Shown piece by piece: positions 3,435 to 64,000 of a stretch of DNA of 64,000 bases. Every line of letters begins with the position of its first letter. Position 1 is the first letter of the stretch. The notes beneath the pieces were generated by a model. It was not told the DNA's origin, made no database searches, and saw nothing but the letters and a program-made list of their open reading frames with translations. Origin of the DNA: an uncultured Cytophagia bacterium. Its GTDB lineage: Bacteria; Zhuqueibacterota; Zhuqueibacteria; Residuimicrobiales; Residuimicrobiaceae. Both the position numbers and the translations under genes were made by a program. The stretch spans positions 8,348-72,347 of the forward strand of contig CAZISM010000013.1 in the NCBI GenBank assembly GCA_964541895.1. The letters are read 5' to 3'.

Positions 3435-5528
3435 ATGAAGCCGCCGATCACTCTCAGCATTGTTATTGTCAACTATAACGTACGCGAATTCCTGGAACAG
3501 GCGCTGAGCTCTTTGCAGGCCGCTCTGACCGGTCTGAGCCATGAGGTATGGGTGGTGGATAATGCGTCCACCGACGGCAGTGTGGAATGGCTTCGTTCCC
3601 ATTATCCCCAGGTGCGCCTGATCGCGAACACGGTCAACGTCGGCTTTGCCCGTGCCAACAACCAGGCCCTGGCCGCGTGCCAGGGACAATTTATCTGTCT
3701 GTTGAATCCGGACACGATCGTCCAGGAGAACACCTTCAGCTCACTGCTGGCGTTTTTCGCAGCACATCCGCAGGCCGGAGCCGTGGGCTGCAAGGTGCTG
3801 AATCCGGACGGCTCTCTGCAGCTGGCGTGCCGACGCAGTTTTCCGACGCCGTGGGTTGCGCTGACCAAAATCATCGGTCTGGCCGCCCTCTTTCCCCGCA
3901 GCCGGATATTCGGCCGCTACAATCTGACATTTTTGGATCCGGAGCAGAGCGCTGAGGTAGAAGCCATTTCCGGTTCCTTTATGCTCATTCGCCGTGAAGC
4001 CGTGCAACAGGTGGGTTTTCTCGACGAAGCGTTTTTTATGTATGGTGAGGATCTGGATTACTGCTTTCGCATCCGCGAGGCCGGTTGGCAGATCCACTAT
4101 GTTCCGCATACGCGCATCATCCATTTTAAGGGCGAAAGCTCCAAAAAGAGTCCGTTCGAGCAGCGGCGTCTGTTTTATGAAGCGATGCGGCTCTTTGTGC
4201 ACAAGCATTTCAGCAAAGGCAAGGCCCTGGTGCCGATGTGGTTCCTGCTGGTGGCCATACAGCTGCGGGCCGTGCTCTCTTTTTTTTCTTCCATCCTGTC
4301 GCTGATGGTGCTGCCGGCTGTGGATGTGGCCATGCTTTCGATCTCGCTGGCGGCGGCGGTGTACATTCGCTTTGAACCGCGTTTCCCCTGGCGCGATTTT
4401 ATGGTGGTGCATCTGCTTTACAGCGCCATCTGGCTGACGCTGCTGTCATGGCGCGGCGTCTACAAGCAGCAAAAGTTCGGCATCATGGCCACAGGATCCG
4501 CCCTGGTGATGGGATGGATCATCAACAGCGCCATAACCTTTTTTCTGAAAGAGATCGGTTTTTCCAGGCTGGTGGTGCTGTATGCCGGATTGTTCAATCT
4601 GCTGTTGGTTCCGGGATGGCGGCTATTGCTCAGAGCCGCCGCTTATGTCAACTATCGCCATTTGCAGGGTTCGTGGGGCGGCCGGCTGCTGCATCCGCGC
4701 GCTGTGCTGGTGATGGACAGCCATGCCGGCGATAAAACGCTGCAGCGGTTGCGCATGCGGCTGGAGGGTCATTTCACCCTGGTGGGGATTGTGCTGGTGG
4801 ATCGGATCGAAACCGTCGCCAGCATCCGCGGCGTGCCGGTGCTGGGCTCCATCGATCAGATCGAAGAGGTAATCCTGCAGACGCGCGTTCAGGAGGTCAT
4901 TTTCGCCACGGAGCGCATTGCCAACTATCAGATCCTGTCCATTATCGCCACCGGCCATGGCCGGCCCGTTTCCTTCAAGTGGATTCCGCGCGCCATGGAC
5001 GTCATCATCGGCAAGGCGACGGTGGATTATGTGGACGAGGTGCCGTTCCTGGAGATCGATGACCGGCTGCACCACAAAGCCAGCCGCATGCTGAAACGAA
5101 GTCTGGATGTAGTTCTCGCGTCGGCGTTGCTGATACTGAATCTGCCGGTCATGGTGTGGTGCCATCTGCTGCGCCGTCTGGCTGTACAACAGATTCGATA
5201 CATCGGCCGCGACAGCCGTCCGTTCGTACAGCGACAGTTTGCCGCTGCCGGCGGCCGCGTCCGCTGGTATCACCGTTCGCTGCAGTGGTGGCCGATTTTG
5301 ACCGGCCACATGAGCATGGTCGGCGTGCACCCGCAGCCCTATGAAGCACCCGCGGCCAAGGCGCCGCTGTTCAAGCCGGGCTGGACCGGCCTGGAGCGGC
5401 TGCAGGCGAATCTGGAGTTGACGGATGACGATCGCGAACGGTTGCATCTGCACTATATGAAAAATTACTCCCTGTGGCTGGACCTGGAAATCATGGTCCG
5501 CACCATCATTTCAAACCTGAAGAGATGA
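3435..5528 (+). CDS. GT2 glycosyltransferase fused to a membrane domain, a Rossmann-like domain and a degenerate bacterial sugar (phosphoglycosyl) transferase domain
   Basis: N-terminal SIVIVNYN, VVDNASTDGS, LNPD, FFMYGEDLDYC; several TM helices; C-terminal KRSLDVV...GHMSMVG...KPGWTG...YMKNYSLWLDLEIM. Confidence 0.85.
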   Translation: MKPPITLSIVIVNYNVREFLEQALSSLQAALTGLSHEVWVVDNASTDGSVEWLRSHYPQVRLIANTVNVGFARANNQALAACQGQFICLLNPDTIVQENTFSSLLAFFAAHPQAGAVGCKVLNPDGSLQLACRRSFPTPWVALTKIIGLAALFPRSRIFGRYNLTFLDPEQSAEVEAISGSFMLIRREAVQQVGFLDEAFFMYGEDLDYCFRIREAGWQIHYVPHTRIIHFKGESSKKSPFEQRRLFYEAMRLFVHKHFSKGKALVPMWFLLVAIQLRAVLSFFSSILSLMVLPAVDVAMLSISLAAAVYIRFEPRFPWRDFMVVHLLYSAIWLTLLSWRGVYKQQKFGIMATGSALVMGWIINSAITFFLKEIGFSRLVVLYAGLFNLLLVPGWRLLLRAAAYVNYRHLQGSWGGRLLHPRAVLVMDSHAGDKTLQRLRMRLEGHFTLVGIVLVDRIETVASIRGVPVLGSIDQIEEVILQTRVQEVIFATERIANYQILSIIATGHGRPVSFKWIPRAMDVIIGKATVDYVDEVPFLEIDDRLHHKASRMLKRSLDVVLASALLILNLPVMVWCHLLRRLAVQQIRYIGRDSRPFVQRQFAAAGGRVRWYHRSLQWWPILTGHMSMVGVHPQPYEAPAAKAPLFKPGWTGLERLQANLELTDDDRERLHLHYMKNYSLWLDLEIMVRTIISNLKR

Positions 5529-7822: not shown

Positions 7823-8077
7823 ATGGTCAGTAAAGAGTTGTTGGAGATTTTGGCATGTCCGTCCTGCAAAGGCGACCTGATCTATGACGAAAAAGCCGAT
7901 ACCTTGACCTGCAGGGGCCGCCATTGCCCGAGTTGCGGCATGCCCGTGGACGGCCAGGGCGTCTGCAGCGATGCCGAGTGCGGTAAAACCTCTTCAGAAT
8001 GGGTGGGGCTGGAATATCGCGTTGAAGACGACATTCCGATCATGCTCATCTACGAAGCGAAGAAACTCCCGCTCTAG
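7823..8077 (+). CDS. Trm112/YcaR-family small protein with an inserted Cys-rich segment
   Basis: MVSKELLEILACPSCKGDL...YRVEDDIPIML is the typical Trm112 frame; GGAG RBS upstream. Confidence 0.85.
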   Translation: MVSKELLEILACPSCKGDLIYDEKADTLTCRGRHCPSCGMPVDGQGVCSDAECGKTSSEWVGLEYRVEDDIPIMLIYEAKKLPL

Positions 8078-8215
8078 CTCTTTCAGCTCGTTCTGGTGTT
8101 CGCGGCTGCGCTCCATTGATCACTCCGCTGGAACTGTCTCGTGTAATTGCAATAATATCATGTAAATAAATATTGCGCGCCTGCGCGTGATATTATTTTA
8201 CGTACCAGAAAAGCC

Positions 8216-8244
8216 TTGCTTCTTTTGGAAATTACCTATATATT
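8216..8244 (+). promoter_or_regulatory. Putative sigma70 promoter for the HNH-scpAB operon
   Basis: TTGCTT (8216-8221), 17-nt spacer, TATATT (8239-8244). Confidence 0.45.
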
Positions 8245-8283
8245 AATCGATAAATTATTTTGAAGTAAAGGCACGGCTCTGCC

Positions 8284-8787
8284 ATGCTGAACGCCAAGGT
8301 CCTATTGCTCAATCAAAATTATGAGCCCCTGACCGTGGTCAGTGCGCGCAAGGCGATTGTGCTCGAGTTCGCGGAAAAGGTTGAGGTTGTAGAACATCGA
8401 GAGAGCTGGATTCATTCGCAGCACCTTCGTCATCCTGTGCCGAGCATTGTTCGGCTGCGCCGTTTTGTGCACATTCCGCACAAGCGGGTGGAGCTGACGC
8501 GTCGCAACATCTTCCGGCGGGACAGTTTTCGCTGCCAGTATTGTGCCACCATGAAAGGCCCTTTTACGATCGATCATGTGCTGCCCAAGACGCGGGGCGG
8601 CGGCGACACGTGGGAAAATCTGGTGTGTGCGTGCATCGCCTGTAACAGTCGCAAAGGAAACCGAACCCCGGAACAGGCCAATATCAGACTGATCCGGTTG
8701 CCGCGGCGGCCCAGCCACCTCTTTTTTATCCAGTATTTCATCGGCATTCAGGAGGAGGGCTGGAAGCCTTACCTCTTTATGAATTGA
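8284..8787 (+). CDS. HNH endonuclease (McrA-like, stand-alone)
   Basis: VLLLNQNYEPL, RRNIFRRDSFRCQYC, TIDHVLPKTRGGGDTWENLVCACIACNSRKGNRTP. Confidence 0.92.
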   Translation: MLNAKVLLLNQNYEPLTVVSARKAIVLEFAEKVEVVEHRESWIHSQHLRHPVPSIVRLRRFVHIPHKRVELTRRNIFRRDSFRCQYCATMKGPFTIDHVLPKTRGGGDTWENLVCACIACNSRKGNRTPEQANIRLIRLPRRPSHLFFIQYFIGIQEEGWKPYLFMN

Positions 8788-8855
8788 ATTCCCGATATTT
8801 TTTTAGTGCTGAATTACGAGGGCCGTGCTGCAAACGGCCTTCATCGTGTTAAGGT

Positions 8856-9575
8856 ATGCCATATAAAATAAAACTTGAAGCCTTTGAAGGGCCGCTGGAT
8901 CTCTTGCTGTTCCTGATCAAAAAGGAAGAGATCGACATATACGATATCCCCATCGCCAAGATCACGGAGCAGTTTCTGGCGTACGTGGAAATCATTCAGC
9001 TGCTGGATCTGGAAGCCGCCAGTGATTTTATTCTCATGGCCGCAACGCTGATGCGCATCAAGGCGCAGTTGCTGCTGCCGAGAATGAGCGAGGGCGAAGA
9101 GGAAGAAGAGTTCGGCGATCCCCGGCAGGAGCTGGTGCAGCGGCTGCTGGAATACAAGCGTTTCAAGGAAGTGGCGGAAGACCTGGCCGTCAAGGAAGAC
9201 GTGGCCGCCAGGCTCTATCCGCGCGGCAGTTTCAAGTTCGAAGAGGGCTGGGATGAGGAGATGTTAACCTCGTCCGAGGTGTCGCTGTTCGATCTCGTGG
9301 CCGCTTTTCGTTCCATGGTGGATCGGGCCCCCAAGATCACGGTGCATCAGGTGCAGTTGATCACCGTCACCCTGGAGGAACGCATCAGCTATGTGGAACG
9401 GGTGGTGTACGAGCGCATCGAAGTACGGTTCCATGAGCTCTTTCTGGACGGCGAAGACAAAATCGTCTGGATCGTAACGTTTATCGCCATCCTGGAACTG
9501 ATACGCAGCAGAACCATCTCCGCCCGGCAGGATGAACCCTTTGCAGAAATTTATTTGACCAAAGCGGATGAATAA
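8856..9575 (+). CDS. scpA: Segregation/condensation protein A (SMC kleisin)
   Basis: FEGPLDLLLFLIKKEEIDIYDIPIAKIT, DPRQELVQRLLEYKRFK, IVTFIAILELI. Confidence 0.95.
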   Translation: MPYKIKLEAFEGPLDLLLFLIKKEEIDIYDIPIAKITEQFLAYVEIIQLLDLEAASDFILMAATLMRIKAQLLLPRMSEGEEEEEFGDPRQELVQRLLEYKRFKEVAEDLAVKEDVAARLYPRGSFKFEEGWDEEMLTSSEVSLFDLVAAFRSMVDRAPKITVHQVQLITVTLEERISYVERVVYERIEVRFHELFLDGEDKIVWIVTFIAILELIRSRTISARQDEPFAEIYLTKADE

Positions 9576-56808: not shown

Positions 56809-58797
56809 GTGTCAAGCTGGATAGGACGTCTGATTCTGTTGGGGGCGCTTTTGGCGAGCGCAGGTTTTTTCATCCGCGAAATCTGGATTCGTGTTCGATT
56901 GATCCAGCGCGGCAAACGGGAGGTGAGTCGCACCGACCGGCCTGTGGAACGATTGCGATTCATGGTGTTGCGTGTGGCTAGCCAGCTCTGCGCCATCAAG
57001 GACCGGCCGCTGGCCGGCCTCATGCATGCGTTTCTGTTCTGGGGCTTTATGCTGTTCACCGTTGCCACGATCAATCACGTCGTCGGTGCGTTCATAAGCG
57101 GATTTTCACTCTGGGGCCATTCGGCCTTTAACGACCTCTGGTTTCTGGCAGTGGACGTGGTGGCGGTGCTCACCATCGCAGGCACTCTTTTTCTGGCGTT
57201 CCGTCGCTATGTGATCAAACCTGTGGCCATCACCCAGCCGCAACCCATCTCCCGTTCCTGGCAGAGCGGGGTGGTGCTGTCGCTGATTTTCGGCCTGATG
57301 ATCACCTATCTCTTCGGCCAGGCGGTGGACGGTATCCGCAGCGGGCACTTTTTTGCCGCCAGCATGCCGTTCAGCCGGGCTTCGGCCGCTCTTTTCACCG
57401 GTATGTCGCCAGAATCCCTGAGCCTGTGGGGCGGGATTTTCTGGTGGTCGCATATCCTGATGGTGTTCGGCTTTCTGGTGTTCATCCCTCATTCCAAGCA
57501 CCTGCATCTTTTGGCCGGACCGGTGAACATTTTTTTACGCAGCCGCGAGCCCATCGGCACGCTGCAAAAGATTGACTTTGAAAAGTCGGAAGAGTTTGGC
57601 GTCAGCAGGGTCACGCAGTATCAATGGAAAAACATGACCGACTTTTTCTCCTGTGTCGACTGTGGCCGTTGCCAGGATGTCTGCCCGGCGTTTCAGAGCG
57701 GCAAGGCATTGTCGCCCAAAGTGGTCATGATGAGTCTGCGCAAGCATCTGTTGCACGAGAAAGAGGCGCTGTTGAAAGGCGGCGAACCTTCCGAGCCGGT
57801 CATGGATGGCTGGCTGACGCCGGACGAGATCTGGGCCTGCACCACCTGCGGCGCCTGCATGGAAACATGCCCGGTGATGAACGAACACATACCCGCCCTT
57901 GTCGAGCTGCGGCGCGCCAAGGTCATGATGGACAGCGACTTTCCCACGGAACTGAATGCGACGTTTCGCGGCCTGGAGACCAACGCCAACCCGTGGAACA
58001 TGGGAGCGGCCGCTCGCGCCGAGTGGTGTCAAGCGTTGCAGGTGCCGCTGATGGCGGAAAAGAGAGAGGCCGAGTACCTCTGGTTCGTCGGCTGCGCCGG
58101 CTCCTTTGATGATCGCGGCAAGAACATTTCCAAAGCGCTGGTGCAGATATTGAACGCCGCCGGTGTGGATTATGCGATTCTGGGAGCAGAGGAAAAGTGT
58201 TGCGGCGATCCGGCGCGCCGGGCCGGCAACGAATATGTGTTCCAGATGATGGCGGAAGAGAACATTCAGACCATGAAGCAGTACAGGTTCAAAAAAGTCT
58301 TGACCTCCTGTCCGCACGGGTATCATATGATTCAGAGCGAATATCGCCATCTCGGCGGCGAGTTCAGCGTCGTGCATCACACCGAGCTGATTGCCGAGCT
58401 GTTGAAGCAGGGGCGGCTCAGCGTGCGGCAGATGCAGGAGAGTGTGGGCTATCACGACTCGTGCTATCTGGGCCGGTATAATAACGTTTACGATGCGCCT
58501 CGTCAGGTGTTGCAGCATTTGCAGCACGGGGGCTGTCGGGAGATGGGGCGGCATCACAGCAAGAGTTTTTGCTGCGGCGCCGGCGGTGGCCGCATGTTCA
58601 TGGAAGAGACGGTCGGGACCCGTATCAACCATCTTCGCGTGGAGGAAGCCGTCGCCAGCGGCGCCGGGATTATGACCACCGCGTGTCCGTTCTGTCTCAC
58701 CATGCTCGATGACGGCACCCGGGAGAAGGGGCTGGAACAGAACATTCAGGTGCTGGACATTGCCCAGGTGGTGGCGAGCCATCTGGTGCAAAAGTAG
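56809..58797 (+). CDS. Membrane-bound Fe-S oxidoreductase (FadF / heterodisulfide-reductase-related, CCG domains)
   Basis: N-terminal TM helices; CVDCGRCQDVCP and CTTCGAC.ETCP ferredoxin motifs; CCG motifs EKCCGD and FCCGAGGG. Confidence 0.92.
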   Translation: MSSWIGRLILLGALLASAGFFIREIWIRVRLIQRGKREVSRTDRPVERLRFMVLRVASQLCAIKDRPLAGLMHAFLFWGFMLFTVATINHVVGAFISGFSLWGHSAFNDLWFLAVDVVAVLTIAGTLFLAFRRYVIKPVAITQPQPISRSWQSGVVLSLIFGLMITYLFGQAVDGIRSGHFFAASMPFSRASAALFTGMSPESLSLWGGIFWWSHILMVFGFLVFIPHSKHLHLLAGPVNIFLRSREPIGTLQKIDFEKSEEFGVSRVTQYQWKNMTDFFSCVDCGRCQDVCPAFQSGKALSPKVVMMSLRKHLLHEKEALLKGGEPSEPVMDGWLTPDEIWACTTCGACMETCPVMNEHIPALVELRRAKVMMDSDFPTELNATFRGLETNANPWNMGAAARAEWCQALQVPLMAEKREAEYLWFVGCAGSFDDRGKNISKALVQILNAAGVDYAILGAEEKCCGDPARRAGNEYVFQMMAEENIQTMKQYRFKKVLTSCPHGYHMIQSEYRHLGGEFSVVHHTELIAELLKQGRLSVRQMQESVGYHDSCYLGRYNNVYDAPRQVLQHLQHGGCREMGRHHSKSFCCGAGGGRMFMEETVGTRINHLRVEEAVASGAGIMTTACPFCLTMLDDGTREKGLEQNIQVLDIAQVVASHLVQK

Positions 58798-58823
58798 AAC
58801 GAAGGGATATGTAGCGGAAAAAG

Positions 58824-58858
58824 AAAAGGCCTTGCCGACGAATCGGCAAGGCCTTTTT
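58824..58858. terminator. Bidirectional terminator between the convergent FadF-like and cold-shock genes
   Basis: AAAAGGCCTTGCCGA-CGAA-TCGGCAAGGCCTTTT. Confidence 0.88.
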
Positions 58859-58876
58859 GGTTGGGCAAAGGCTAAG

Positions 58877-59077
58877 CTAGATCTTGCTAACGTTGGCCGC
58901 TTGCAGTCCTTTGGGTCCTTTTTCGACGTCAAATTGAACTTTGTCGCCTTCATTCAAGGACTTGAAGCCGTCCCCCGCGATCGCCTTATAATGCACGAAC
59001 ACGTCCGCACCGCCCGGCCGCTGGATAAATCCATAGCCTTTTTCGGAATTAAACCATTTGACGGTTCCCTGCTCCAT
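58877..59077 (-). CDS. Cold-shock protein (CspA family)
   Basis: [18 protein letters not shown]...DVFVHY...GFKSLNEG...[10 protein letters not shown]; ATG at 59077. Confidence 0.96.
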
Positions 59078-59388
59078 CCTGACTTTCCTTTCTTTTAAGA
59101 ATTGCTTTTTTGCCGCGCTTGCGGCCGGCGTACCCATGCATTATTTCTGACATGCAAAAAAAAATCGCAAATCACGGGAAGACAGTATAATCCCGCGTTG
59201 CGATTTAGCAGCGGCCAATCGAATGTTCACAATACTGTGTGTTAAGGTCGAACGCGTAGAGCATGCAGAAATTACATTTACAATGGTGTACCACGATTTG
59301 TCTTTGATAATGTAAATATATTTTTTATAATACGCAAGAAAAATTACATAAAATCTACAAATCGGGGCAATTTGAAAGGAACAGGCGG

Positions 59389-60690
59389 ATGCTGAAAAAA
59401 GTGCTGTTTTTACTGGTGGCGGTGACCGGTTGGTCTGTAAAACTGGCTGCTCAGCCGCAGGGGTTCAACTATGATGAAGCGAAGGTTCCCGCCTATACGT
59501 TGCCGGATCCGTTGCTGACGATAGCGGGTGAAACGATCACCACGCCGCAAGCCTGGTGGGAGAAACGCCGGCCGGAGTTACTAAAGCTGTTTGCGGAGGA
59601 GGTTTATGGCCGGACGCCGGCGGCCGCGCAGAAATTTAAGATCGCTAAACCATTGATTAAAAAGGATAAAAATGCCCTGCACGGTCTTGCTGTCCGCAAG
59701 CAGGTCCATATCCGCCTGGCGGGCAAAGAGCCGATGCCGCAGATGACTATTCTGATCTATCTGCCAAAGGCGGTGACCAAGCCGGTGCCGCTCTTTCTGG
59801 GTTTGAATTTTAACGGCAACCACTCTATCCACAATGATCCGGGCATTGAGCTGTGCGAAGCGTGGATGCGCGATGATAACAAGCCGGGTATCGTCGGCAA
59901 CCGGGCGACGGAACAAACCCGCGGCATCGAAGCCAGCCGCTGGCAGGTGGAAATGATTTTGCAGCGGGGCTATGGTCTGGCCACAGTATATTACGGCGAT
60001 CTGGATCCCGATTTTGACGACGGTTTTAGGAACGGCGTGCAGCCTCTGTTTTATCGCGACGGGCAGACACGTCCGGACGCAGACGAATGGGGTGCGATCG
60101 GTGCCTGGGCCTGGGGCTTGTCGCGGGCTATGGATTATCTGCAAACCGACAAGGATGTGGATGCCGGCCGTGTCGCCATCATCGGCCACTCGCGTCTGGG
60201 CAAGGCGGCGCTCTGGGCCGGGGCACAGGACCAGCGGTTTGCGATGGTGATTTCCAACAATTCCGGATGCGGGGGGGCGGCGCTGTCAAAACGCATTTTC
60301 GGAGAAACCGTGGCCCGCATCAACACCAATTTTCCGCACTGGTTTTGCGGCCGCTATAAAGCCTACAATGACAACGAATCGGCCTTGCCGGTGGATCAGC
60401 ACGAGCTGTTGGCGTTGATGGCGCCGAGGCCGCTCTACGTTGCCAGCGCCCAGGAGGATCTGTGGGCCGATCCGCGCGGTGAATTTCTCGCCGCTCTGGC
60501 GGCGAGTCCGGTGTACCAGCTGCTGGGCCGCGATGGTCTGGTCGCGACCGAAATGCCGGCGCTGCAGCAACCGGTGCACAGCACCATCGGCTATCATATT
60601 CGCAGCGGCAAGCATGATGTGACGGCGTACGACTGGGAACAGTATTTAAATTTTGCCGACCGTCATTTCCGGCACCCGCGCGTCCGTTAG
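59389..60690 (+). CDS. Secreted CE15-family (glucuronoyl-esterase-like) esterase
   Basis: Signal peptide; [74 protein letters not shown]. Confidence 0.9.
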
Positions 60691-60761: not shown

Positions 60762-61439
60762 TCAGAGCATGGTGTGATTTGAGTGGTGTTTGGTTTTATT
60801 GGCCGGTTCCAATATCGGGATGTTGAGCATGAATTGTTTCAACGACAGCAGATCTTTGCGGCTGTGCGGCGTGCACGAGTCGTCGGCCACCTTGTACAGC
60901 TTTTCGATCAGCATATTCCCTTTGTTCAGAAATTCGGTGGCGGACGAGTAATCGTGTTTTTCCATCTGGATGAGGGCGAGCGCTTTTTGTTCGATGACGC
61001 GGACCAGGTCAAGGTACTGTTGAAAGTAGTCGCGGGTGTTGGCGTCGCGGCTGGTTTTGCAGACAAAGGAGAGCGCTCGCGAGATGAACTTTACGTCTTG
61101 GTCGGCCAGGGTGTATTTGTGCAGATGCATAAAGGCCAGCGAACGGATCAGGTACAGCACCAGTTCCTGTTCCAGTTGCACAAAATCCTGCTGGTTCAAC
61201 TCAAAGGGGGTTTTGTTCTTTTGGCTGTTTTTGAAACGCCATAGCAGATGGTGATAGTAAGAGGCTTTGTTGTGGGGCAGCCGTCCGTCCGGTCGGCCGC
61301 TCAGTTCCATAGCCATCAATCCGGATTGAAAATAGATATTGAGATGCAGTTTGGACGAGTTTCCCGTCTCAAATACGGCATGGATCTGATCCGCATTGGC
61401 AATCCAGTAACGGAAAACAGGTTCAAAAGTGAAATCCAC
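60762..61439 (-). CDS. Hypothetical helical protein; divergent relative of the uncharacterised MELxGRPDGxxPH family
   Basis: GTG at 61439 with GAGGAGGAG RBS; LMAMELSGRPDGRLPH...YFQQYLDLVRVI...A...MEKHDYSSA. Confidence 0.7.
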   Translation of the reverse strand: MDFTFEPVFRYWIANADQIHAVFETGNSSKLHLNIYFQSGLMAMELSGRPDGRLPHNKASYYHHLLWRFKNSQKNKTPFELNQQDFVQLEQELVLYLIRSLAFMHLHKYTLADQDVKFISRALSFVCKTSRDANTRDYFQQYLDLVRVIEQKALALIQMEKHDYSSATEFLNKGNMLIEKLYKVADDSCTPHSRKDLLSLKQFMLNIPILEPANKTKHHSNHTML

Positions 61440-61816
61440 TGCTCCTCCTCTGAGACAGCACCATGAAACGTTTTTGCCGCGATAAGAGGCAGAATCTAAA
61501 GCACCCGGATCAATATAAGCAACAATTTTTATTTTGTCAAGATAAATTAGCGACAAGTCGTCAATATTTGCGAATATAAATATCCAGCAAACACTTTTCT
61601 CTTCGCCTGCCGGGAAATGTCAAAATTAGCACCCGTAAACGTTGAATTTTTAATCACTGTCACAAAAAGTATATATAGAAAATTATGGCTATATTTTTAA
61701 AATAATAAGTAAATCGCAAATTTTAGCGAATTATATTGCATTTTATCAATAATTTTCTTATTATACCACCGACCCGGACGGTTCTAACCATTAAATTTCT
61801 GAAGGAGAAAGGTAAA

Positions 61817-62068
61817 ATGAAACGCAACTTGGCAAAAGTGCTCGCAATCATTCTGTTAGGCTTTGTTTTTTTGGCTGCGTTTGCCGTAACAGACAAAATT
61901 TATTCGTCAGATGAAGAAAAATCTCTTGTAATTGTCGTAAAAGATGCTAAATTTGGCGAAGAAGAAAAAATTATTATCATCGAAGATCCCGGCACGGGTG
62001 GGGCCTATGTAAACAGCGTCTACCCGGGGCCGACGCCGCCGCCGCCGGATACGACCGGCGGGAACTAA
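61817..62068 (+). CDS. Small secreted protein (83 aa) with a Pro-rich C-terminus
   Basis: GAAGGAG RBS; signal peptide MKRNLAKVLAIILLGFVFLAAFA; tail YPGPTPPPPDTTGGN. Confidence 0.75.
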   Translation: MKRNLAKVLAIILLGFVFLAAFAVTDKIYSSDEEKSLVIVVKDAKFGEEEKIIIIEDPGTGGAYVNSVYPGPTPPPPDTTGGN

Positions 62069-62094
62069 ATCAAAAAGGACACCCAAAAAGCGAA

Positions 62095-63222
62095 ATGAAG
62101 TTCGGGTCTGCATCCAATCTTGCACAAACGGTCCGAAGAATTCTTGGTTTTTGGATAGGTTTTCTCTGCGTCTGCAATTTTCTTTCATTGTTGCCGCATT
62201 GGCATTTGCACCTGTTGAGCTGGGTTAATTACTCGCTCTTTTTTCTGATGGCCGTGACTTCCATCTACATCGCACGCAAAGAGATCTATTTCGTCGATGT
62301 GTTCTGGCACTTTGGTATCCTGTTTCTGCTGATTTCGTTTTCAATGCTCATCTACTTTACCGGCAAGGAAGGAATCATCGGCAACAATTTTCTCTACTAC
62401 TACCTGGTGATTTATTCCAAACCGTTTTTTCACGTGATGTTCCTGGCCGGCATTTTTTATCTCTCCTACCGCTATGTGCTCTGGAGAATGCCGAACCGAA
62501 CAGGATACCTGCTGTCGTGGTTCGCGGCCTTTATATGCAGCGCCGATTTCTGGTACAAAGCCCTGACCATCTCCCGCTTTCCCTTTAAGGTGGGCGCCTT
62601 GGGCCAATTCTGGATTATGCTGCGCATCGACATCATCGGCCTGCTGTTACTCGCATCCTATTTTATCGTTGTCTGGCGTCTTAATCGTCCGACCGGCTCA
62701 TTTATCAATTTTTGGCTGGTCGGACTTTTTGTTTTCTTTTCCTGCGATTTCATCGACATGGTGGTGTCGTTCTACCAGCTGGATGTCTATGGCATCGATC
62801 AGTATTTCAGCCTGATCTGCCTGGGCCTGTTGGCCGTCATCCTCTTCCTGCGCCTGATTTCCCTGTTCTCTGATGAATACCGGTTGAAAGAACAGTTCAT
62901 TTTCGATTCCGCGTTCGGCCTTTCCACGCCGGTGGTTATGGTGAACAAACACTCCGAAGTCATCATCGAACAGGTTAAAAATCTGTTCAGCACTCAGACT
63001 CTGGTGCTGCAGTTCGCCTTCGGACTGGGGCTGATTCTTATTTCCGGCTTTACCCGCAATCCGTTCGTGACCGTGAAATCGTTTATGATGATATTTTTGC
63101 TGGCCGGAATCTGGAACGTCTATTATCATGTCTATTATAAACGGTCAAAACGTCCGCAAATTTTAAATCAGAAATTCCTTAACCAGCCAACGAATACCCA
63201 TCAAAAGGGGAGAGGTGTATGA
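62095..63222 (+). CDS. Polytopic membrane protein (about 10 TM) with no recognisable catalytic domain
   Basis: AAGGA upstream; about 8 hydrophobic segments, a short polar loop, 2 more segments and a basic tail. Confidence 0.8.
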   Translation: MKFGSASNLAQTVRRILGFWIGFLCVCNFLSLLPHWHLHLLSWVNYSLFFLMAVTSIYIARKEIYFVDVFWHFGILFLLISFSMLIYFTGKEGIIGNNFLYYYLVIYSKPFFHVMFLAGIFYLSYRYVLWRMPNRTGYLLSWFAAFICSADFWYKALTISRFPFKVGALGQFWIMLRIDIIGLLLLASYFIVVWRLNRPTGSFINFWLVGLFVFFSCDFIDMVVSFYQLDVYGIDQYFSLICLGLLAVILFLRLISLFSDEYRLKEQFIFDSAFGLSTPVVMVNKHSEVIIEQVKNLFSTQTLVLQFAFGLGLILISGFTRNPFVTVKSFMMIFLLAGIWNVYYHVYYKRSKRPQILNQKFLNQPTNTHQKGRGV

Positions 63223-64000
63223 AGATTCATCGCAGCCAGGCGTTACCACCTGAAGTATTGCTTGGCAACTGTCCCGAGATCGACCAGATCCGGCGCGCTC
63301 TGACCATGATCGGCAAAAGCAACCAGAACGTGATGATCGTCGGCGAACCCGGGACCGAGAAAGTGCAGATTGCCAGAGCCATCTGCGAACACAGTCAGGG
63401 CGCGAATAAATGCGTTCTCGAATCCGAATCGTCCAAACTCAACGCCGCCTTTGAATTCGAGATCAGCGCCCAGATTCAGCGTGCCGAGCCGGACATTGAA
63501 TCCCTCAACAGCGTGCAAGGCATCATCATCATCGAAAATGTGGATCAACTCTCAGTGGAGGCGCAAAAGAAACTGCTGGTGCTGGCTCGCCGCGGCTATT
63601 TTACCCTGCTGGGACAGAAAAAGCCGACCGCCACGGATTTCCGGCTGATCTGCACCACCTCTACAAAAATAAATAACGATGCCATGCAGAGCGGCCTGGA
63701 TTCCGAACTGTTCCTCGCCCTCTCGGAGCTCACGCTCAAATTGCCATCGCTGCGTGACCGCCGGCAGGACATTCCGGTTCTGTTCGAGCACTATTTGAAA
63801 AATGTCTGCGAGGAACTGGTGCGGCCGGTGCCGCCGATCAATTTCGAAATTTTTAATCAGATGCTCAAATACGATTGGCCCGGCAACGTCAAAGAGCTGG
63901 AAAATGTCGTGCGCAGCCTCGTGCTCTCTTCGCCCGAAGGCGAACTGCTGCCTCAGGCGCTGCCGTTCTTTGACGATCGGCAACAGTTCGGCAAGCTGGA
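63219..64000 (+). CDS. Receiver-less, degenerate sigma54-interaction (NtrC-type AAA+) protein; 3' truncated by the window edge and absent from the ORF track
   Basis: ATG at 63219 overlaps the previous TGA (ATGA) and follows GGGGAGAGG. Manual translation: MKIHRSQ...NVMIVGEPGTEKVQIARAIC...IIIIENVDQLSVEAQKKLL...DFRLICTT...LPSLRDRRQDIPVL...YDWPGNVKELENVV. No stop before base 64000. Confidence 0.88.
   Translation, partial: MKIHRSQALPPEVLLGNCPEIDQIRRALTMIGKSNQNVMIVGEPGTEKVQIARAICEHSQGANKCVLESESSKLNAAFEFEISAQIQRAEPDIESLNSVQGIIIIENVDQLSVEAQKKLLVLARRGYFTLLGQKKPTATDFRLICTTSTKINNDAMQSGLDSELFLALSELTLKLPSLRDRRQDIPVLFEHYLKNVCEELVRPVPPINFEIFNQMLKYDWPGNVKELENVVRSLVLSSPEGELLPQALPFFDDRQQFGKL

Follow-up and report, generated by a model that had tools for sequence, protein, structure and literature searches.

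To our knowledge, nearly all described bacterial transmembrane signalling to transcription uses kinases, anti-sigma factors, proteolysis or transporters. PspF consists of an AAA+ domain and a helix-turn-helix (HTH) domain only and is controlled in trans; membrane proteins give the input without phosphorylation, and the Psp operon is autoregulated. Enhancer-binding proteins (EBPs) that lack the GAFTGA motif and act with sigma-70 are also known, namely E. coli TyrR, P. putida PhhR, R. capsulatus HupR, M. xanthus HsfA, B. abortus NtrX and V. cholerae VpsR (PMC6158489). In VpsR the Walker B DE is changed to ND, and at PvpsL its proximal site directly precedes the -35 and its distal site is near -300 (PMC6158489). 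Here we describe a three-gene unit at the right-hand end of a 64 000 nt stretch of DNA from an uncultured bacterium (contig CAZISM010000013.1; the whole stretch is called the window below), encoding a small exported or anchored protein, a membrane protein with ten transmembrane (TM) helices and a degenerate NtrC-type regulator. We put the chances at about even that this unit is a phosphorylation-independent signalling module, in which the 10-TM protein would be a sensor that directly controls an ATPase-dead regulator, which in turn would autoregulate the operon. What is new is the combination and the membrane-protein family; the kind of regulator and the signalling logic are known. A preliminary description of this DNA had stated that no system of this architecture has been described. 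This stands for the combination and for the membrane family, neither of which was found described in Pfam, NCBIfam, PADLOC, the PDB or the literature, but not for the parts, which have counterparts in the sigma-70 GAFTGA-less EBPs (PMC6158489), in Mlc-PtsG and MtlR sequestration and in the trans control of PspF.

The small-protein gene (ORF1, 83 aa) lies at 61817-62068 on the forward (+) strand and is followed after 26 nt by the membrane-protein gene (ORF2, 62095-63222, +, 375 aa) and then by the regulator gene (ORF3, 63219-64000, +), which the window end truncates at residue 260. The preliminary description had reported three co-oriented genes behind an AT-rich control region, the third overlapping the stop of the second, and all of this is seen: the ORF2 stop and the ORF3 start overlap as ATGA at 63219, and the 260-nt intergenic region has a GC content of ~0.33, against 0.45-0.55 in the three genes and 0.55-0.62 in the upstream flank. 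In ORF2 the fall in GC is accompanied by a marked excess of T over A on the strand (AT skew ~ -0.3), which we attribute to the very hydrophobic protein that the gene encodes. ORF1 is preceded by an AAGGAG Shine-Dalgarno sequence at 61802-61807, 9 nt before the start. Both halves of a phosphotransfer pathway are missing, as had been claimed: there is no HisKA/HATPase in the 375-aa protein and no receiver (REC) domain in the regulator.

The regulator has Pfam matches to PF14532 (Sigma54_activ_2, 1.5e-18), PF00158 (Sigma54_activat, 2.4e-16) and AAA_lid_14 (5e-18). Its AAA+ domain begins at residue 15, and therefore ORF3 has no receiver or other N-terminal domain, in agreement with its earlier assignment as an NtrC-family AAA+ protein without a sensory domain. 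The window copy is truncated before its C-terminus, where a 90% identical orthologue of 320 aa (P0095) carries the Fis-type HTH (HTH_8, residues 269-309, 1.3e-11). The regulators neighbouring the membrane gene in related contigs all bear PF02954 (HTH_8). Every listed protein of the subfamily is at most 325 aa long (full-length members 314-325 aa), too short for an additional N-terminal domain, and AAA+ and HTH_8 are the only Pfam families represented.

To compare motifs, ORF3 was aligned with the structures of ZraR, NtrX and NifA and with 28 family members. In the window protein, Walker A is GEPGTEKV, with the second glycine changed to glutamate and the Ser/Thr missing; Walker B is IIIIEN, with the DE gone; the GAFTGA position reads AAFEFEISAQ (aligned segment AAFEFEISAQIQR); and the arginine-finger segment (RxDLyyRL) is LDSELFLAL, with L and A at the finger positions. 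The lid, the RRQDIP motif and the sensor II motif (NVKELEN) are retained. GAFTGA and the Walker B DE are missing in all 29 family members, while the Walker A change from G to E is confined to the clade of the KSB1 division to which the window belongs; distant clades keep GxxGxGKE. The label 'pseudo-AAA+' given to this protein in the preliminary description was apt, and judged by its motifs the regulator is a predicted ATPase-dead, GAFTGA-less 'atypical EBP' like TyrR or VpsR. The public names of P0095-P0111, 'DNA-binding NtrC family response regulator' or 'sigma-54-dependent Fis family transcriptional regulator', are misleading for proteins that have neither a receiver domain nor a sigma-54 contact loop.

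The likeness to the atypical EBPs extends to an NtrC-type AAA+ domain with HTH_8, loss of GAFTGA, non-consensus Walker motifs and palindromes by sigma-70-type promoters, the last of which are predicted here. The differences are threefold. The described proteins have N-terminal ACT/PAS (TyrR) or REC domains (VpsR, HupR and NtrX) and the module regulator has none; decay has gone deeper in the window clade, which has lost the Walker A glycine, the Walker B DE and both arginine fingers; and the module regulator is always encoded directly after the 10-TM protein. In having an AAA+ domain and an HTH only, and hence needing control in trans, the regulator resembles PspF with PspA and PspBC (and likewise HrpRS with HrpV). 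PspF, however, has a working ATPase, the GAFTGA motif and a sigma-54 promoter, none of which applies to the module regulator. Moreover, the operon has no PspA-family match, and its 10-TM protein belongs to a new family, in contrast to the small PspB and PspC.

The membrane protein is presumed to be the sensor of the module. No identical sequence was present in the records covered by an exact-sequence lookup, and there were no matches in Pfam, NCBIfam or PADLOC (E<=1 or 0.01). A word-indexed search found 8 relatives, an exhaustive profile search found 87 matching clusters among 1.84 billion representatives, and a search with a 50-sequence profile gave at least 6 proteins. With no cluster above 395 aa, the family has no space for a kinase or another large output domain as a fusion partner. 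An AlphaFold2 model built from a deep alignment (predicted local distance difference test, pLDDT, 88.9; predicted template-modelling score, pTM, 0.87) has ten TM helices, the number first estimated as about ten, together with a 43-residue cytoplasmic loop after TM8 (residues 259-301) and a basic cytoplasmic C-tail (residues 353-375). The charge distribution agrees with an N-in/C-in topology, in which the LPH, G90/G96 and VYGIDQYF loops would face the periplasm. With this pLDDT-89 model, a Foldseek search against the PDB gave no match at E<=1e-3. The top matches were 7-TM receptor bundles with query-normalised TM-scores (template-modelling scores) of 0.3-0.4, and the same weak likeness was obtained with shallow and deep models; we took this as generic bundle topology and rejected homology to 7-TM receptors.

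Among 50 members of the family, only W20, N45 and Y189 are conserved at 90% or above and there are no invariant polar residues, which argues against the membrane protein being an enzyme. An intramembrane protease or an exosortase was rejected in the lack of both invariant catalytic residues and a profile match. Likewise, 7TMR-DISM, 5TMR-LYT, MASE, exosortases, rhomboid/S2P/CPBP proteases and transporters gave no profile or fold match and no conserved catalytic residues. The protein therefore lies outside the known enzyme and transporter families, in keeping with the preliminary description, and on the evidence of Pfam, NCBIfam, PADLOC, the PDB and the literature it represents a family so far undescribed. 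Moderately conserved positions cluster on the periplasmic side and at TM2 (an LPH loop, the TM2 start SWxNxS and a G90/G96 loop) and on the cytoplasmic side (R198-P-x-G, S259, E266 and R350).

The AAA+-HTH gene lies directly after the membrane gene in 29/29 non-identical loci that are long enough, and also in the P0024 contig; across clades the two genes are often translationally coupled. Where upstream DNA is available, nearly every locus also has the small ORF, down to ~20-25% membrane-protein identity. The three genes thus occur together elsewhere. A metagenome scan, seeded with a 5-sequence alignment (A3) of distant relatives, added 30 further loci from other lineages with different neighbours. 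The module is real and is widespread in a few uncultured lineages. In metagenome-assembled genomes of the KSB1 division, the three genes have the same synteny as in the window at ~45% membrane-protein identity, with shared upstream genes for electron transfer flavoprotein (ETF), an Fe-S/CCG oxidoreductase, a cold-shock protein and a glucuronyl-esterase-like hydrolase, and shared downstream genes for an M20 peptidase, aspartokinase, DapB, DHDPS and THDPS. This conserved position between metabolic genes at such divergence indicates that the module is resident in the lineage with no recent acquisition, and the suggestion that it is an accessory module did not hold.

In all clades, most loci have an 18-bp palindrome (consensus TTCGCAAAATTTTGCGAA) upstream of the module. 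We built a position weight matrix from the other loci and the proximal site of the window, the distal site being outside the training set. Only two hits of >=12 bits were found in the 64-kb window, both in the intergenic region upstream of the small ORF: a predicted proximal operator box, ATCGCAAATTTTAGCGAA (61713-61730, unstranded; a TCGC-N8-GCGA palindrome, 20.5 bits), and a predicted distal box, GTCGTCAATATTTGCGAA (61557-61574, unstranded; an 18-bp imperfect palindrome, 18.0 bits). In the non-redundant loci, 33/60 hits fall within 350 nt upstream of the small ORF, in what is 3.7% of the DNA, an enrichment of ~15-fold. A predicted sigma-70-type promoter follows the proximal box (61736-61764, +), with TTGCAT at 61736-61741, a 17-nt spacer and TATTAT at 61759-61764, and would start transcription at ~61771; it is weaker than consensus and under the threshold of the promoter scan. 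In most clades the register box-N4-6-cTTGACa-N17-TATAtT-N6-GACCCGAAC is fixed, and the window promoter aligns with it. A sigma-54 -24/-12 promoter (TGGCAC-N5-TTGCW) had no match with <=2 mismatches in 61557-61816, and such matches across the window are fewer than the shuffle expectation.

The proximal box is presumed to be the binding site of the HTH_8 regulator, and the natural reading of the layout is that the regulator autoregulates the operon at the sigma-70-type promoter via the palindromes. A second, distal box, 94-343 bp upstream of the proximal one, is also present in L007, L011, L012, L014-L017, L019, L020 and L047, and the pairing of a proximal site just upstream of the -35 with a distal site is like that of VpsR at PvpsL (PMC6158489). 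The placement of the box varies: in L001, L009 and L011 it fills the -35/-10 spacer, and elsewhere it is upstream of the -35. In L045 an operator box stands only ~90 nt ahead of the membrane gene. In L018, two further boxes occur 6 kb downstream of the module (9080-9097 and 9155-9172; 19.8 and 17.7 bits), upstream of a 364-aa gene (7845-8939, -) whose product has no Pfam match and an N-terminus resembling a signal peptide by eye; the regulon may extend to this gene.

The transcript may carry a second layer of control. An inverted repeat brackets the small ORF, in the window and at the equivalent sites in L018 and L024-L052, with a leader of the GACCCGAAC type. The 5'-leader arm in the window, GACCCGGAC (61771-61779, +), pairs with a 3' arm, GTTCGGGTC (62100-62108, +), which overlaps codons 2-5 of the membrane gene in its translation-initiation region (TIR). 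The leader motif GACCCG(A/G)A(C/T) is found 37-71 nt upstream of the small-ORF ATG in 20 loci, and in other clades the 3' arm is CTGTTCGGGTC, at -15 to -4 of the membrane-gene ATG. This stem closes both the minimum free energy and the centroid folds of the window and L025 transcripts. The pairing covaries between clades: it is kept with different sequence in L021/22 (14-15 bp), L037 (18 bp) and L050 (19 bp), and the L024 duplex contains a compensatory change. In 20/37 loci the observed duplex energy was reached by 0/30 shuffles. Rfam gave nothing near the gathering score in 61400-62300. Together, these features suggest a clamp between the 5' end of the mRNA and the TIR. A DNA-inversion switch, which a repeat around a small ORF could also denote, was rejected: orientation is constant in all loci examined, no recombinase is linked, and the arm mismatches in the window, L018 and L032 are G.U wobbles, compatible with pairing as RNA.

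The window small protein is basic at its N-terminus; its hydrophobic run is 17 residues long and leads directly into a conserved juxtamembrane motif (TDKIYSSD), and its C-terminus, PGPTPPPPDTTGGN, is Pro-rich. Across loci the small ORF encodes 61-125 aa with the same plan, namely a basic N-terminus, a hydrophobic run of 17-21 residues, the juxtamembrane motif and a Pro-rich C-terminus. Members of the KSB1 clade share the motif P.P...PPDTT there; other clades have PMPKPTKPKPKP, PIPPPPYPEP and similar. Pfam, NCBIfam and PADLOC gave no matches for the small protein, but purifying selection (dN/dS, the ratio of nonsynonymous to synonymous substitution rates, 0.18-0.45) and the strong Shine-Dalgarno sequence mark the small ORF as a genuine coding gene. 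In two loci the Pro-rich unit is in tandem: SLRRPMPKPKIPPYPPPDVT occurs three times in the L042 small protein (86-463) and DEPLPRPPLASLLQDPI four times in that of L048 (183-560). These copies are reminiscent of multi-copy peptide precursors or of multivalent binding tails.

The preliminary description had called this protein a secreted peptide. The hydrophobic run may act as a Sec signal peptide that is cleaved off or may anchor the protein in the membrane, and its length fits an anchor better. Candidate cleavage sites in the window protein (AFA|V) and in the L021 and L022 proteins (LQA|S) favour export with cleavage, but many relatives have no clear site, and no processing or export gene is linked to the module among the neighbouring genes in the window relatives and the P0024 contig. 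The KSB1 genomes encode TonB-dependent receptors and tails of the type IX secretion system, and we therefore read the hosts as diderms, in which a Sec-exported peptide would remain in the periplasm. The conservation of P.P...PPDTT within the KSB1 clade also counts against secretion. The small protein may act while anchored in the producer or after release.

Evolutionary rates set the small protein apart. Leaving out rows L007, L012 and L014, dN/dS was 0.18-0.45 for the small ORF, ~0.10 for the membrane gene and 0.03-0.19 (mostly ~0.1) for the regulator; at 2-4 times the rate of its partners, the small protein is the fastest-varying member, as had been anticipated, while still under purifying selection. 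In one clade the variation is confined to a cassette. L025 and L034, from different metagenomes, are 97-100% identical over 3.7 kb on the left and from ~position 4860 rightwards; between these, from just past the hydrophobic segment of the small ORF to about residue 295 of the membrane protein, they share only 61-85% nucleotide identity. The regulator dS is 0.035 and the membrane-gene dS is 1.3. L036 carries a third allele with a regulator 99-100% identical in nucleotides to those of L025 and L034. Its membrane allele groups with L035, L047 and L027 (91-99%), although the L035 regulator is only 86% identical to the others; cassettes and regulators have thus been reassorted among L025, L034, L035 and L036. 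The cassette, comprising the exported tail and TM1-8, has a signature resembling that of pherotype or specificity loci such as comQXP. The cassette boundaries imply two functional pairings, of the exported tail with TM1-8 and of TM9-10 plus the C-tail with the regulator.

Our preferred reading, a phosphorylation-independent module, would work as follows. The regulator would bind the palindromes as a sigma-54-independent activator or repressor and control its own operon and possibly the divergent 225-aa gene described below. The 10-TM protein would sense at its periplasmic face and would hold or release the regulator through its cytoplasmic face, comprising the post-TM8 loop, TM9-10 and the basic tail; we infer that the signal passes by such sequestration or release. 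The extracytoplasmic Pro-rich tail of the small protein could be the cognate ligand or a co-sensor of the TM1-8 bundle. Pairing of the mRNA 5' end with the membrane-gene start would limit translation of sensor and regulator relative to the small protein, and/or stabilise the transcript. The proposed logic is like that of Mlc-PtsG and MtlR-EIIMtl, in which the cytoplasmic face of a polytopic protein titrates a DNA-binding protein in a kinase-free manner (PMC13482132, PMC13421365). There, however, the membrane partner is a phosphotransferase-system transporter of known substrate and the repressor is of the ROK or MtlR type, whereas the module protein lacks a transporter fold.

Several points weigh against this reading. 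In three loci (L023, L045 and L051) no small ORF is recognisable upstream of the membrane/regulator pair, which means that the small protein is not obligatory; judged by gene content, the two-gene pair appears to be the core, and the small protein accessory or encoded elsewhere. The window leader/TIR duplex alone is weak (-18 kcal/mol), being equalled by 3/30 shuffles. With the box position varying among clades, an activator role cannot be told from a repressor role by sequence. The hypervariable cassette is seen only in one distant clade assembled from metagenomes, and divergence in the window clade is ordinary (membrane protein 79-83%, regulator 90%, compared at the protein level; the two closest relatives are P0002 and P0003). 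The protein-protein and protein-DNA contacts of the module are predicted ones, and the regulator could sense a cytoplasmic ligand alone, as FleQ and VpsR do with c-di-GMP.

A more social version of the module is, in our view, improbable. Here the unit would represent a hitherto unrecognised signalling class of uncultured Gram-negative lineages and would serve allele-specific cell-cell or self-recognition, by a ribosomally made Pro-rich tail (in some loci in tandem copies), a stand-alone 10-TM receptor and an ATPase-dead EBP-derived factor gated directly by the receptor in the absence of phosphotransfer, with recombining pherotype cassettes maintained in populations and an mRNA clamp that sets the signal:receptor ratio. 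In the strict form of the model in the preliminary description, the small protein would be cleaved and its Pro-rich C-terminal peptide would be a diffusible quorum-sensing pheromone for the 10-TM receptor of neighbouring cells, the alleles being pherotypes. We consider this pheromone explanation improbable, though much of the locus is in keeping with it. As in comQXPA, agrBDCA and comCDE, the order is small exported product, polytopic sensor and regulator, and the apparent autoregulation via the boxes, here predicted from sequence, would give a feedback loop. The small protein diverges 2-4 times faster than its partners; the L042 and L048 proteins carry three and four tandem Pro-rich units like multi-copy precursors; and the AxA-type sites (AFA|V in the window, LQA|S in L021 and L022) are plausible. 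In L025, L034 and L036 a hypervariable peptide and sensor cassette is reassorted beside a conserved regulator, as at the pherotype loci, where comQXP identity between pherotype clusters is 65-70% in strains with near-identical gyrA (PMC4408185).

Against a pheromone, in contrast to comQXPA, agrBDCA and comCDE, the module lacks HisKA/HATPase and receiver domains and any ComQ/AgrB/ComAB-type maturation or export gene; its hosts appear to be diderm, where the exported peptide would be periplasmic, and release of the small protein is only a possibility. The 17-21-residue segment suits an anchor better, with no cleavage site in many relatives, and the juxtamembrane motif right after it is conserved, as is the C-terminal P.P...PPDTT across the KSB1 clade. 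The small ORF is also missing from some loci. The kinase-less signalling system first proposed for this DNA is thus partly supported: the architecture and the absence of phosphotransfer survive, while a diffusible quorum-sensing peptide and a recent accessory island are unsupported.

We are similarly doubtful of a model in which the cue is cytoplasmic and is sensed by the regulator alone (perhaps a nucleotide second messenger at the degenerate AAA+ domain), the small and 10-TM proteins being an envelope or structural output. It is common for an operon encoding its own regulator to be autoregulated, some loci have no small ORF, and the second box pair of L018, upstream of a putative secreted-protein gene, suggests a wider envelope-related regulon. 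However, the strict adjacency and frequent coupling of the membrane and regulator genes, maintained at 20-25% identity in differing neighbourhoods, are typical of partners and not of a regulator with one of its target genes. In addition, the cassette boundary falls inside the membrane gene and leaves TM9-10 and the tail with the regulator. Within the regulator, GxxGxGK is kept outside KSB1 while GAFTGA and the Walker B DE are always lost, and we identified no motif for ligand binding.

A toxin-immunity or bacteriocin-like pair, in which a small exported Pro-rich antibacterial effector and the membrane protein as its immunity factor would co-diversify in an arms race and the regulator would serve expression only, is very unlikely. 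Co-diversifying small exported and polytopic proteins between conserved flanks are also typical there, and loci without the small ORF would be orphan immunity genes. But the membrane gene is under strong purifying selection (dN/dS ~0.1), its alleles being old and not fast-evolving, its universal link is with the regulator and not with the small ORF, the locus has no genes for export, lysis or maturation, PADLOC and Pfam gave no bacteriocin or immunity matches, and the conserved cytoplasmic S259, E266 and R350 would be left without a role.

If the preferred reading, direct control of the regulator by the 10-TM protein, is true, the module is a compact kinase-less route in which a new 10-TM receptor family is wired directly to a 'fossilised' AAA+ regulator, and the EBP has been stripped to an ATPase-dead scaffold plus HTH that works at sigma-70 promoters. 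The small, self-contained module with a defined operator makes heterologous rebuilding in E. coli feasible despite the uncultured hosts. The allelic cassette raises the possibility of a pherotype-like social structure in sediment and digester communities.

Divergent from the module lies a 225-aa gene of unassigned function (60762-61439, -, with the ORF extending to 61556), whose product has no Pfam, NCBIfam or PADLOC match. Its start is probably the GTG at 61439, in view of an orthologue of 225 aa and a spacing of 378 nt in the P0002 contig, both of which match. A near-consensus divergent promoter, TTGACA-17-TATATT (61512-61540, -; 11/12 matches), has the distal box 16 nt upstream of its -35, and the gene may be co-regulated through this box. 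In L001-type loci it is exchanged for another gene. The flanking window genes at 56809-60690 are ordinary and syntenic with the KSB1 relatives. They include a 662-aa Fe-S/CCG-domain oxidoreductase (within 56809-60690), whose orthologues in the relatives come after etfBA, a cold-shock protein (58877-59137, -) and a glucuronyl-esterase-like hydrolase with a signal peptide (59389-60690).

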